A stretch of 64,000 nucleotides of DNA from a virus (IMGVR_UViG_3300046804_000816:1-64000); one strand, 5' to 3'; positions 14,610-42,266 are shown, numbered from the stretch's first letter. Translations and numbers: made by a program. The notes: generated from the sequence alone by a model not told the origin.

Positions 14610-14638
14610 TTGACAATCCAGTCATCCCGTGGTATCAT
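14610..14638 (+). promoter_or_regulatory. early sigma70-type promoter inside a 9-bp inverted repeat
   Basis: TTGACA-N17-TATCAT with extended -10 TG. Confidence 0.8.
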
Positions 14639-14662
14639 TAAGCCAAGATGAAAGGTTTCGCT

Positions 14663-15304
14663 ATGATCAAGTTGTCCAAGGCTTCCAAGATGCCGGCTAA
14701 GTCCTGGTCGCTCCAGGCCCGTGCTACCTGCCCTGGTTCTATCGACAAGGCTACCAAGTTGCCCGTTGCTGTTTGCGCCGGTTGTTATGCGAACGAAGGC
14801 TTCTATATGATGCCCGACGCGATCAAAGTCCGCGAGCACAATCGCGAAGACTGGAAGCGAGCAGAATGGGTCGATGATATGGTCAAAGAGTTGAAGCGGC
14901 AGAAGTTCTTCCGCTGGTTTGATTCTGGCGACGTATATCACCCCGCGCTCGCGTTCAAGATCTTTTTGGTTATGCAGAAGACGTCGCATGTCAAGCATTG
15001 GCTTCCTACCAAGTCTTACAAGGTACCGCGTATCCGCGCGATCCTGGAGCGTATGAAGACTCTTGACAATGTGTCCGTCCGCTATTCGTCAGATTCTATG
15101 ACTGGCGAGTTCGAGGCGGATCACGGCTCGACGGTTATCCCGTTCGCTGATAGCGAGACGAGCGCGACTAAGGTTTGCGATGCGTATGAGCGCTCTGGCA
15201 AATGTGGCGACTGCCGCGCCTGCTGGAACAAGGAAGTCGCTGTTGTTGCGTATCCGGCCCACGGTCGTCGTATGGGTCGTATGGTGAAGGACTTGGCTGC
15301 ATGA
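14663..15304 (+). CDS. GP88-like (radical SAM-like Fe-S) phage protein
   Basis: TCPGS...VCAGCYA, FRWFDSGD, HWLPT and KCGDCRACW motifs. Confidence 0.75.
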   Translation: MIKLSKASKMPAKSWSLQARATCPGSIDKATKLPVAVCAGCYANEGFYMMPDAIKVREHNREDWKRAEWVDDMVKELKRQKFFRWFDSGDVYHPALAFKIFLVMQKTSHVKHWLPTKSYKVPRIRAILERMKTLDNVSVRYSSDSMTGEFEADHGSTVIPFADSETSATKVCDAYERSGKCGDCRACWNKEVAVVAYPAHGRRMGRMVKDLAA

Positions 15305-15426
15305 GAAAGAATCATATAGCGAAGGATCTTCGCACACCTAAATATCGTATGCGCGTCGTGCGATCTCGCAAGGCGTACAAAAGAAAAGGTCGCGTAGCTC
15401 AGCTGGATAGAGCATCAGACTTCTAA
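15301..15426 (+). CDS. ArfA-like (alternative ribosome rescue factor A-like) peptide whose ORF runs into tRNA-Arg
   Basis: MRKNHIAKDLRTPKYRMRVVRSRKAYKRK matches the ArfA core N-x-I-x3-L-x2-P-x-[FY]-R-x-R-V...Y-x-R-K; ATGA-coupled to the upstream gene. Confidence 0.55.
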   Translation: MRKNHIAKDLRTPKYRMRVVRSRKAYKRKGRVAQLDRASDF

Positions 15427-15464
15427 TCTGAGGGTCGATGGTTCGAATCCATCCGCGATCGCCA
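15388..15464 (+). tRNA. tRNA-Arg(TCT)
   Basis: Cloverleaf; TCAGA-CTTCTAA-TCTGA; CCA. Confidence 0.95.
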
Positions 15465-15477
15465 TTAGGAGAGTAAC

Positions 15478-15768
15478 ATGAAAGTCGTAGCATTAGCCGC
15501 CGTCGCCATGATTGCATTGACTTCCACCGCAGAAGCGCAGTATCGTCGCGATCATCGCCATGGCTACCGCGCGCCAGCGCCGCACTATCATGTCGCGCCT
15601 CGCCGCAACAACTGGGTGCCATACGCCGTCGGTGGACTTGCGCTCGGCGCTCTTGGTGCTGGTGCATACTATTACAATCGTCAGCCCGTATGTTGGGATG
15701 AACCAGTTTACAACTACGACAGATACAATCGCCCTCGCTTGATGGGATACGAAAGAATCTGCCAATAA
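15478..15768 (+). CDS. secreted protein resembling rhizobial BA14K-like proteins
   Basis: Signal peptide, Arg/His-rich stretch and GGLALGALGAG glycine zipper. Confidence 0.55.
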   Translation: MKVVALAAVAMIALTSTAEAQYRRDHRHGYRAPAPHYHVAPRRNNWVPYAVGGLALGALGAGAYYYNRQPVCWDEPVYNYDRYNRPRLMGYERICQ

Positions 15769-16548: not shown

Positions 16549-16875
16549 ATGTTAAGAGCGTTCATCATCTCTGCGACTGTTCTGTTCGCAACTCCCGCCC
16601 TTTCTAAGGGAGAGATGAACGCGACTTGGTATCAATGCTGCAAACGAACAGCCAACGGCGAGAAGTTTGATCCTAATGGTATGACAGCCGCGCATAGAAC
16701 GTATCCATTTGGTACTATGTTGCGCGTCACACACAAGGATAAGTCCGTTGTTGTTCGTATAAATGATAGAGGACCGTTTAGAAAAGGATATCAGTTAGAC
16801 TTGGCTCGAGGTGCTGCATTTGCCATTGGATGTCGTAGTTCGTGCAAAGTGAAATATGAAATTATTCCGCGATAG
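16549..16875 (+). CDS. RlpA-like double-psi beta-barrel lytic transglycosylase
   Basis: ATWY, TANGEKFD..MTAAHRT.PFGT, VVRINDRGP and LDLARGAA motifs. Confidence 0.88.
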   Translation: MLRAFIISATVLFATPALSKGEMNATWYQCCKRTANGEKFDPNGMTAAHRTYPFGTMLRVTHKDKSVVVRINDRGPFRKGYQLDLARGAAFAIGCRSSCKVKYEIIPR

Positions 16876-16941
16876 CTCAGCTGGTAGAGCAGGTGACTGT
16901 TAATCACCGGGTCCCTGGTTCGAGTCCAGGTCGCGGAGCCA
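16866..16941 (+). tRNA. tRNA-Asn(GTT)
   Basis: Cloverleaf; GGTGA-CTGTTAA-TCACC; CCA. Confidence 0.95.
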
Positions 16942-17586: not shown

Positions 17587-17661
17587 GCTACCTGAGCAGG
17601 ACGGTAATGCGCGGGACTGCAAATCCTTGAGAACCCAGTTCAATTCTGGGAGGTAGCTCCA
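17587..17661 (+). tRNA. tRNA-Cys(GCA)
   Basis: Cloverleaf; GGGA-CTGCAAA-TCCT; U73; CCA. Confidence 0.9.
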
Positions 17662-19809: not shown

Positions 19810-19885
19810 ATCCCACAAGCATTTAGGGGCGATGTAGCGGTCTCCAAAACCGCAGAGCGGGGTTCGAGTCCTCGGTGGGGTGCCA
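19810..19885 (+). tRNA. tRNA-Trp(CCA)
   Basis: GCGGT-CTCCAAA-ACCGC; G73; CCA; atypical D-arm. Confidence 0.85.
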
Positions 19886-21194: not shown

Positions 21195-22097
21195 ATGAAA
21201 ATTCTTGTTTCGTTTTCCGGTGGATTTGATTCCACTTACATTATGTACAAATTGTTGACAGAAACGACACATGAAATTACGGCTGTATGCTTTTATGGTT
21301 ATCATAAAGATATTTGTATGAGCGCTCAGCCGTCTTTGAGTAAGATTCAGCCCAATCTCGATATAATAGTGCAAGAGCTGAAAAAGATCAGAGACTTCAC
21401 GTTTATCACGAAAGAAATACAACGCGAAGAATTTACTGAAGACAATGCGTTTCTATCGCGCTATATTGTAAAAGACAAGCTGCATGCAATCGCTAGCGGT
21501 CCTTTAGATTATTTTATTTGGTGGGCGATTCCAGGAGTTAATGCTGGATCGTACGATACTCTCGTGCATGGCATTTCCTGGGAACAAATGCGCAAGAAAT
21601 ATAAAACGACAGATGGAACTGAAGGAAGTCCGAAGCACGTCGAAGCAGAAAAGAAACTGAAACAATATGCGCCCACTGCTCGTATGTGGTTTCCATTATT
21701 GAATCATGATTTTCATTATCAGTTTAACAGATGGCATATCTTTAAGTACATGCCAGAAAACCTGCAGAGATATTGCATTTCTTGTGCGTCGCCAACTGTC
21801 AATGAAGAATCAATAAAAGAACCGTGTGGATATTGTTTCAAATGTTTGTGGGATAAGTTCACTAAGAATGTCGTTGAACACGATGTGATGAACGCGGAAC
21901 AGCTTGAAGAATATCGCTATAAGAAAGCATTAGAGTATGGTGGCGGAAATGGCATTACAGCCACTATGCGTTATTGGATTCCCGTAGAAATGCAAGCCCA
22001 AAAATCGTATTATCATGTTGATGGACTTGTTCTCGACACCAAAGAAAAGGTGCAGCAATATATGCAGAACAAGAACTTCGACTATCTTGTGAAATAG
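21195..22097 (+). CDS. QueC-like PP-loop ATPase
   Basis: N-terminal SFSGGFDS PP-loop; C-terminal SC...PCGYCFKC zinc site. Confidence 0.65.
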   Translation: MKILVSFSGGFDSTYIMYKLLTETTHEITAVCFYGYHKDICMSAQPSLSKIQPNLDIIVQELKKIRDFTFITKEIQREEFTEDNAFLSRYIVKDKLHAIASGPLDYFIWWAIPGVNAGSYDTLVHGISWEQMRKKYKTTDGTEGSPKHVEAEKKLKQYAPTARMWFPLLNHDFHYQFNRWHIFKYMPENLQRYCISCASPTVNEESIKEPCGYCFKCLWDKFTKNVVEHDVMNAEQLEEYRYKKALEYGGGNGITATMRYWIPVEMQAQKSYYHVDGLVLDTKEKVQQYMQNKNFDYLVK

Positions 22098-22172
22098 GGC
22101 GTATAGCTCAAGCGGTAAGAGCAGGCGCCTTATAAGCGTCCGATCTGGGTTCGAGTCCCGGTACGCCCACCA
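22097..22172 (+). tRNA. tRNA-Ile(TAT)
   Basis: GGCGC-CTTATAA-GCGTC; acceptor stem GGGCGTA/TACGCCC; A73; CCA. Confidence 0.88.
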
Positions 22173-41267: not shown

Positions 41268-41959
41268 GATTTGATCATAGTCCTCATATAGATTTACCAA
41301 GAGCAAAGCAAATCAACACACCATCGGGGCGTCGCTATCAGACCCCCGATGGAAACGTATATCCTTCAATCACTACAGTTTTGGGCGATCAGCCTGAGAA
41401 GAAGAAAGCCATTGCCGAGTGGCGTGCTCGCGTTGGTGCAGAAGAAGCAAACAAGATCAGCTCGCAAGCTGCTAGGCGTGGCACCGATCTTCATAATCTC
41501 ATGGAAAAGTATATTCTAGGAGACGAGATTGATGCAAAGAAAATCATCCCTTCGACCCTCGCACGTTTTCGTCCTGTTCAAAAATGTTTGGACGACAATC
41601 TACAACTTGTGTATGCGTCTGAAACACCGATGTTCTCAGACATTCTCCGCATCGCGGGGACAGCAGACCTAATCTGTGAGTGGAATGGAGAAGTGACCGT
41701 TGTCGATTTCAAGACAGCCACGAAGATGAAGACAGCCAGCATGATCACCGATTACTTCTTGCAGGCTACAGCCTATTCGATTATGTTCGAAGAGCATACT
41801 GGTATCGAATGTCATCACTTCGCCATTCTTATGATTTCTGACGAAGGCGAGTTCCAAGTATTTCCAGGGCGTCGTAATGATTATGTTCGCGATCTTATTC
41901 GCGTGAGGGATCAATACGAATGGAGGAAAAGTCTTGACAACCAGAGCAAAGCCAGCTAG
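41264..41959 (+). CDS. PD-(D/E)XK exonuclease
   Basis: YPSITTVL, RGT.LH, AGTAD, VDFKT and Q.TAY motifs. Confidence 0.88.
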   Translation: MRFDHSPHIDLPRAKQINTPSGRRYQTPDGNVYPSITTVLGDQPEKKKAIAEWRARVGAEEANKISSQAARRGTDLHNLMEKYILGDEIDAKKIIPSTLARFRPVQKCLDDNLQLVYASETPMFSDILRIAGTADLICEWNGEVTVVDFKTATKMKTASMITDYFLQATAYSIMFEEHTGIECHHFAILMISDEGEFQVFPGRRNDYVRDLIRVRDQYEWRKSLDNQSKAS

Positions 41960-41967
41960 AATAAATA
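41934..41967 (+). promoter_or_regulatory. tmRNA promoter (sigma70-type with overlapping late-type AATAAATA)
   Basis: TTGACA-N17-TAGAAT overlapping AATAAATA. Confidence 0.7.
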
Positions 41968-41969
41968 AT

Positions 41970-42245
41970 ATGCTGAGGTCGTTGAGGCGTAAGAAATAAG
42001 CGGATCGGACGCGAGGGCAGTACTCGCCGCCTCCACCATGGATACATCGAGAACCCAATATCGGTTCGCAAGATAAGATGATGGCTATTGTCGGTGTATC
42101 TTTGATGGGGGCGAAATAGGATCGACGGACGTAATAAAGTTGCGAAGAGACCAAAAGCAACGTTTAGATGCAAACGATAATGCACCATCTTACGCCCTAG
42201 CTGCGTAAACGAGCACGGGAGGCGCTTAGGAACAGAAGCCTCCCA
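41970..42245 (+). ncRNA. ssrA: permuted two-piece tmRNA; tag peptide (A)ANDNAPSYALAA
   Basis: Acceptor piece ends GGCAGTA T-loop...CGCCTCCACCA at 42038. Intervening hairpin 42039-42106. Coding piece starts GGGGGCGAAATAGGATCGAC at 42107 (G3:U70). Tag frame 42170-42208. Confidence 0.92.
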
Positions 42246-42266
42246 CTCCCACAATCGAGGTGATTT

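Follow-up and report, generated by a model that had tools for sequence, protein, structure and literature searches.

The closest described relatives of the arrangement reported here are the back-up ribosome rescue factors ArfA of Escherichia coli and BrfA of Bacillus subtilis, both of which are made from non-stop mRNAs and are controlled by trans-translation (PMC8012679). The message for ArfA (YhdL, PF03889), a small basic peptide of about 55 residues from the gamma- and betaproteobacteria, is truncated by RNase III or by an in-frame terminator, whereas the truncation of the message for the RF2-dependent BrfA, which likewise ends before its stop codon (PMC8012679), is due to a rho-independent terminator. 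According to a published survey, none of 2376 Alphaproteobacteria genomes contains arfA (PMC11633108), and the label "ArfA" has been given once, in passing, to a phage gene, g10 of Citromicrobium phage RXM (PMC8953757). The transcripts of animal mitochondria are punctuated by tRNAs, whose excision sets where the preceding mRNA ends and may deprive it of a complete stop codon; mitochondrial non-stop mRNAs have been described (PMC9674279).

The locus described here has elements of each of these systems. In common with ArfA, it would encode a small basic peptide with a P-x-(F/Y)-R-x-R-V core and a K/R-rich tail containing Y-x-R-K, aligning to ArfA residues 12-42; there is a tmRNA in the same system, and the mature message, as predicted from the DNA, would have no usable stop codon. 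It differs from ArfA in that the product would comprise 29 residues, with G-K-G deleted, no KH and a lysine at the position of A18; the gene is borne by a phage whose host class is reported to be without arfA, and its message would be truncated by RNase P in the course of tRNA maturation. The likeness to BrfA would lie in trans-translation control of a message ending before its stop, and there is no sequence kinship beyond the basic tail. Mitochondrial punctuation differs in that the stop codon is usually completed by polyadenylation and in that it is a genome-wide rule, not a means of controlling a rescue factor. Also close are the mini-ArfAs of SAR11, SAR86 and marine phages (35-40 aa), which are of similar length and have a near-identical N-x-IAKDLRTPKY-x-x-R-V core but retain KGKGS, reach the PF03889 cut-off and terminate at ordinary stop codons.

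The window that we analyzed is a 64-kb stretch of a 76-kb viral record judged to be 46% complete; the sequence occurs in freshwater and riverine metagenomes. The features pertinent to the argument are as follows.

14610..14638, + strand: predicted sigma-70-like promoter (TTGACA, 17 nt, TATCAT, with TG; 11 of 12 matches), which would drive the ORF and tRNA operon
14648..15304, + strand: GP88-like ORF, 218 aa (PF17338, E 6e-28)
15301..15387, + strand: ArfA-like ORF of 29 codons without a stop of its own, of the GKG-less mini-ArfA or DUF7230 type
15388..15464, + strand: tRNA-Arg(TCT), CCA encoded (ARAGORN; Rfam 70.2 bits); its 5' end is the RNase P site
15424..15426, + strand: first in-frame stop codon, TAA, formed by U36-A37-A38 of the anticodon loop; not conserved in relatives
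15478..15768, + strand: 96-aa ORF that follows, starting 13 nt past the tRNA and preceded by an AGGAG box of its own
41930..42247, + strand: two-piece (permuted) alpha-type tmRNA (alpha_tmRNA, RF01849, 114.5 bits against a cut-off of 50; tmRNA_permuted, RF04321, 96.2 bits)

The initial annotation placed the last of the 29 codons at 15387, immediately before the first base of the tRNA at 15388, with the only in-frame stop codon in the anticodon loop; ARAGORN and Rfam agree on the position of the tRNA, and all three statements stand. The junction falls exactly on a codon boundary (AAA/GGT) with no bases between the two genes, and the uncut reading frame from the ATG at 15301 would yield a 41-aa product ending in the anticodon loop. 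At its other end, the start codon (15301-15303) overlaps the TGA of the GP88-like ORF (15302-15304) as ATGA, an overlap that suggests translational coupling of the two ORFs, and a Shine-Dalgarno-like AAGGA box lies 9 nt 5' of the ATG. No terminator-like site was found on the + strand from the promoter at 14610 up to 16600, and the interval between the tRNA and the 96-aa ORF leaves no room for a promoter or terminator, so this ORF is presumably co-transcribed; the promoter, the absence of a + strand terminator before 16600 and the 13-nt spacing together place the ArfA-like ORF and the tRNA in one predicted polycistronic transcript.

The ORF is a genuine phage gene. A word-indexed search returned 106 homologues of comparable length (32-70 aa) with a nearly invariant core, N-x-IAKDLRTPKYRMRVV, followed by x-S-K-x-x-Y-x-R-K and often by x-K-H. 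When 1.84 billion representatives were searched exhaustively with a profile, 1083 clusters scored at an E value of ≤1e-3 and 113 at ≤1e-10, and relatives are encoded on at least 563 IMG/VR contigs. The family consists of basic proteins, mostly of 35-50 aa, many of which are assigned to the Pfam family DUF7230 (PF23876); 35 of 46 aligned relatives match this model at an E value of ≤1, and the window ORF itself scores 17.3 bits (E 0.005), below the 27-bit gathering score, or 15.6 bits in a six-frame search. Forms of 52 aa are found in the fused clade described below (L089:3145-3442, L090:3709-4102), and their ATG lies about 60 nt inside a preceding ORF of 70-83 aa in another frame, so their conserved M-T-G-N-S extension may be constrained by the overlap.

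The initial annotation had aligned the peptide by eye with the core of ArfA and called for a profile search against ArfA and its phage homologs. Direct comparison failed: neither the 29- nor the 41-aa translation matched PF03889, even at an E value of ≤10, and BLASTP produced no alignment of the 29-mer with E. coli ArfA. Kinship emerged at the profile level, through sequences intermediate between the two. Two of the hits (P0016 and P0037) combine the family core with K-G-K-G-S and carry the ArfA domain PF03889; a search with P0037 returned a clade of 35-40 aa with the pattern N-x-IAKDLRTPKY-K-x-R-x-V-K-x-KKGKGSFKRKK, to which JGI gives the name ArfA, and also recovered the window peptide with an E value of 2e-3 among 5.8 billion sequences. 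The resulting bridge set (A3) has the N-x-IAKDLRTPKY-x-x-R-V core in common with the window family and differs from it chiefly in carrying the KGKGS insert; all 26 of its members match PF03889 (best E 9.3e-11), and its profile aligns with E. coli ArfA with an hhalign probability of 95.9% (E 5.8e-9). For the GKG-less profile, the alignment with ArfA covers residues 12-47 (probability 58.5%, E 9.6e-5) and is interrupted once, by a gap of 3 residues at G-K-G; this accords with the earlier remark that the full KGKGS motif is missing, as the window sequence reads R-S-R-K-A-Y-K-R-K across the gap. When the family profile was compared with all PDB sequences, ArfA chains came first and made up 6 of the 8 top hits, with E values of 0.2-0.6. 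We conclude from these profile comparisons that DUF7230 and the window ORF are probably relatives of ArfA without the GKG loop. DUF7230 was not mentioned in the literature that we searched, and its link to ArfA appears to be undescribed. Hits obtained by tblastn in Vibrio phage Thalassa and Klebsiella phage GF were rejected, being read-through of adjacent tRNAs and not ArfA-like genes.

The junction with the tRNA is shared within a deeply diverged clade of phages. The ORF runs into tRNA-Arg(TCT) at the same point, K-R-K/G, in seven viral loci found by the family scan (L005-L011), in six found by a scan anchored on the GP88-like gene (L085, L090-L093 and L122) and in one from a metagenome scan (L277), and the same tRNA-derived tail is present in records available only as protein (P0002-P0008, P0175); at least 12 distinct DNA sequences have the 0-nt junction and no stop codon before the tRNA. 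Over the 26 codons preceding the tRNA, mean pS in this fused clade is 0.72, near saturation of synonymous sites, and mean pN is 0.165 (pN/pS 0.23). The last four codons vary (TAC/TAT, AAA/AAG, AGA/CGC/AGG/CGA/CGT, AAA/AAG) while Y-K-R-K is kept, and it is thus the amino acids that are conserved up to the tRNA and not the bases of a tRNA leader. Retention of the peptide in hundreds of contigs and of the junction in at least 12 distinct sequences argues that the arrangement did not arise by chance. Beyond the junction, the stop codon lies 12 codons into the tRNA in most fused members, 7 codons in L011, which has a D-loop insertion, and is replaced by TAC in the L090 type (position 38 being C), with the frame remaining open for 37 codons, across the full length of the tRNA; a stop position that drifts in this way indicates that the tRNA-encoded tail is not selected as protein. 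The two genes remain joined with zero spacing despite changing neighbors: nothing separates the GP88-like gene from the ArfA-like ORF in the window and in L085, one extra ORF does so in L086 and L087, and three or four do so in L090-L093.

The tRNA-Arg, for its part, has compensatory double changes in 7 of 21 pairs within the fused clade and none that is broken; judged from this pattern, it is functional and under structural selection. It is established that all tRNA 5' ends in bacteria are made by RNase P. A functional tRNA-Arg and universal 5' processing together imply that the message is cut after codon 29 (15387/15388), and we have high confidence in this prediction. A conserved hairpin that might protect the 3' end made by RNase P was sought in the ORF and none was found (consensus, -4.3 kcal/mol; covariation term positive). 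The tRNA arrays of two members of the fused clade also contain an ARAGORN tRNA with anticodon TCA, labeled "SeC" (L008:4793-4870, L010:4594-4671), which may be a UGA-suppressor tRNA.

The arrangement is confined to one branch of the family. Ordinary stop codons were found in nearly all other family members. Among 43 distinct viral genes of the KGKGS type, none was fused to or adjoined a tRNA; one of 69 genes in the metagenome scan was fused, and so was one of 142 new profile representatives (P0175), both belonging to the same clade. No independent fusion to another tRNA was found among these 43 viral genes, 69 metagenome genes and 150 profile representatives. The fusion, seen in one clade alone, may therefore have a single origin, and non-stop synthesis is, on this distribution, a predicted trait of the fused clade and not of the family. 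Two close relatives whose GP88-like proteins are 90% identical depart from the pattern: the ORF of L089 diverges past A-Y-K-R and runs on for 11 codons to its own stop, with a 190-aa gene between it and the tRNA, and L088 has a deletion of the ArfA-like core but has kept the tRNA. The earlier proposal that RNase P acts as the truncating device thus draws support from the cut implied by a functional tRNA and from the conserved stop-less junction, and the variants that lack the fusion, L089 and L088, count against it; on the related question of whether homologs abut tRNAs or terminators, at least 12 are fused to a tRNA, all in one clade, but most relatives have ordinary stops. A scan for hairpins around the stop codons of 76 distinct unfused genes gave heterogeneous results with no common in-frame terminator; some unfused relatives have terminators 3' of the stop, and in L044 the stop codon lies inside the terminator loop. 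In one tmRNA-bearing phage, an ArfA-like gene that is not fused has a stem of -25 kcal/mol across its stop codon (L082:3124-3181), which could be an RNase III-type site, as in E. coli arfA.

The initial annotation had also pointed to a tmRNA gene belonging to the phage itself. The gene is real: its Rfam score of 114.5 bits is above the gathering cut-off, its tag frame (42170-42208) encodes ANDNAPSYALAA and ends in ALAA, and its extent, 41930-42247, is slightly wider than the 41970-42245 first proposed. Among the remaining fused-clade records, the three with a completeness of 65% or more (G001, G002 and G003) all carry a permuted tmRNA, which scores 107-108 bits in G002 and G003 and 50.4 bits (RF04321) in G001, where the intervening segment is long. 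Three (126-170 kb) of five large phages with unfused ArfA-like genes also carry a permuted tmRNA, at 123-130 bits, and a fourth, of 210 kb, scores just below the cut-off; two of the genomes listed here have terminal repeats.

G006:C1:16306-16676: permuted tmRNA of an unfused-type phage
G007:C1:56045-56341: permuted tmRNA of an unfused-type phage
G010:C1:125533-125745: permuted tmRNA of an unfused-type phage

tmRNA genes are not known to be common in phages. The association of ArfA-like genes with tmRNA looks like a recurring phage pairing, and it suggests a rescue toolkit in which the peptide would have a rescue-related role. No genes for SmpB, an RF-1-domain protein or Pth were found in the 76-kb record (46% complete), so host SmpB and RF2 would be needed. 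The two tools used for small RNAs disagree in places: ARAGORN misses the permuted tmRNA at 41930-42247, even in tmRNA mode, as well as an Rfam tRNA at 17587-17658, and it reports a tRNA-Trp at 19810-19885 that Rfam does not.

We suggest that these elements form a regulatory circuit. The promoter at 14610 would give rise to one message carrying the GP88-like gene, the ArfA-like ORF, tRNA-Arg and the downstream ORFs, and each mature tRNA-Arg would require an RNase P cut at 15387/15388 that leaves a message ending in codon 29 with no stop. As is the case for arfA and brfA, ribosomes finishing the cut message would be expected to stall there with the A site empty. While trans-translation (host SmpB with host or phage tmRNA) had spare capacity, the peptide would be tagged and degraded; once trans-translation was saturated, either ArfA-like factor already present, acting with RF2, or ArfB would release the peptide untagged, and the peptide would then bind more non-stop ribosomes through its basic tail and recruit host RF2. 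The outcome would be a back-up rescue factor whose level follows the tmRNA load, in an alphaproteobacterial host class reported to be without arfA. We place the probability of the full explanation, namely a phage GKG-less ArfA-type gene, a non-stop message generated by RNase P and a tmRNA-dependent back-up factor, at roughly 0.45. The stronger proposition, that of a self-contained viral rescue circuit in which tRNA maturation by RNase P removes the stop codon, the factor accumulates only when trans-translation is saturated and the factor frees, instead of marking for destruction, the products of further phage messages left stop-less by tRNA processing, in a host lineage reported to lack ArfA, is more doubtful, and we advance it tentatively.

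Other explanations deserve consideration. That the frame is a chance opening in the 5' leader of a tRNA might be proposed from its very short length, the lack of a match to NCBIfam and the failure of BLASTP to align it with E. coli ArfA, but the homologue counts (106 near-length homologues, at least 563 contigs and 1083 clusters) and pN/pS already refute this, as do the occurrence of the family in cellular genomes, purifying selection with synonymous change in the last codons, and the start-stop overlap with the upstream gene combined with a Shine-Dalgarno-like box; the probability of a chance frame is negligible. A more substantial objection concerns the activity of the peptide, which could resemble ArfA in sequence but act otherwise, filling the empty mRNA channel or A site without activating RF2; it might, for instance, inhibit rescue by the host, hold on to ribosomes or favor the phage tmRNA. 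E. coli ArfA bearing A18T cannot activate RF2, ArfA cut to residues 1-40 is inactive and the KH motif (K44-H45) of the C-terminal tail is bound in a pocket of the channel through which mRNA enters (PMC8012679). On the alignment, the 29-mer spans ArfA residues 14-42, with its last residue opposite K42, and is 2 residues longer than ArfA 1-40; a lysine is aligned to A18, a small residue in E. coli, the KGKGS loop is absent and the peptide ends before the KH position, where many unfused relatives do have x-K-H after Y-x-R-K. Given that arfA is absent from the 2376 surveyed alphaproteobacterial genomes (PMC11633108), the peptide may also be incompatible with host RF2. Against this, the same lysine occurs in all mini-ArfAs, and with the same core in the chromosomal proteins of Pelagibacteraceae and SAR86, which are more likely to be housekeeping rescue factors; conservation between the families is strongest in the segment that faces RF2; and co-occurrence with a tmRNA of the phage is in keeping with a rescue toolkit. 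In SAR11 and in phages, complete mini-ArfAs end 2-4 residues past (F/Y)-K-R-K, at about K29 of the window peptide, which makes it plausible that the 29-residue product is a complete unit. We consider a non-activating peptide unlikely.

The main rival grants that a real ArfA-like factor is made but attributes the junction to ordinary tight packing, a tolerated overlap: translation would take place mainly co-transcriptionally on uncut polycistronic RNA and end at any stop codon within the tRNA, here after 41 aa, and the missing stop would have no regulatory role. Overlaps between ORFs and tRNAs are indeed frequent among these phages. An RlpA-like ORF of the window (16549-16875) has as its stop the TAG formed by U8-A9-G10 of tRNA-Asn (16866-16941), which it overlaps by 10 nt, and the TAA of a 300-aa ORF (21195-22097) overlaps tRNA-Ile (22097-22172) by 1 nt; the 190-aa ORF of L089 and a 64-aa ORF of L088 also end at the U8-A9-G10 TAG of the tRNA. 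RNase P cleavage would strip the stop codons from the RlpA-like and 300-aa ORFs too. The tRNA-encoded G-R resembles the G-K of R-K-G-K-H in ArfA, the 5' strand of the acceptor stem is invariant in all fused members, most relatives have normal stops and the variant L089 is unfused. RNA data, which consist of assembled contigs from four riverine metatranscriptomes from which ends and levels are not readable, include a contig 100% identical to the window that bridges the junction (15287-15526, comprising the ORF, the tRNA and the next ORF) and another that starts at 15393, with no contig from the four covering 14700-15286; the identity places the phage in these libraries, and the bridging contig means that uncut precursor, or carried-over DNA, exists. 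On the other hand, the tRNA-encoded tail varies in sequence and in length (7, 12 or 37 residues), which argues that it is not selected as protein, and without a cut in the message no functional tRNA could be made. Moreover, the ArfA-like junction is kept at synonymous saturation and the other overlaps are not conserved: in G001 and G005 no tRNA lies beside the RlpA-like gene, and none of the five relatives searched (G001-G005) has the 300-aa gene, so these overlaps are sporadic, whereas the ArfA-like junction is clade wide. Packing without regulation is a possibility to be taken seriously, though an improbable one in our estimation, and we favor the RNase P-generated non-stop message as the explanation of the conserved junction.

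The peptide also has relatives in the cellular genomes, with contigs as long as 678 kb, of Pelagibacteraceae, SAR86, Bacteriovoracaceae and Alcanivorax, with and without GKG. Chromosomal mini-ArfAs of 35-44 aa, with or without KGKGS, are found in Pelagibacteraceae (L166, L172, L177-L179, L183 and L185-L189) and in SAR86 (L167-L176). Unannotated ArfA-like ORFs are also present in cultured-phage records: in Acinetobacter phage 133, one of 36 aa, overlapping the end of gp022, precedes a terminator (L001:1495-1605), and in Roseobacter phage CRP-13, one lies inside the annotated gp52 in another frame (L002:1489-1614). A metagenomic protein of 70 aa (P0107) comprises two tandem ArfA-like modules, one with KGKGS and one without.

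In summary, if our explanation is correct, tRNA excision would constitute a third route to a programmed non-stop message, besides RNase III cleavage and in-frame terminators, and a function would be provided for DUF7230, a large family of unknown function in Pfam. The peptide is short enough for chemical synthesis and hence directly testable. ArfA-type factors would extend to phages and, through the SAR11 genes, to the Alphaproteobacteria. The joint carriage of ArfA-like genes and phage tmRNAs in several groups of large phages suggests a recurring need to clear ribosomes from broken messages, possibly tied to host mRNA decay, dense tRNA arrays or defence nucleases.
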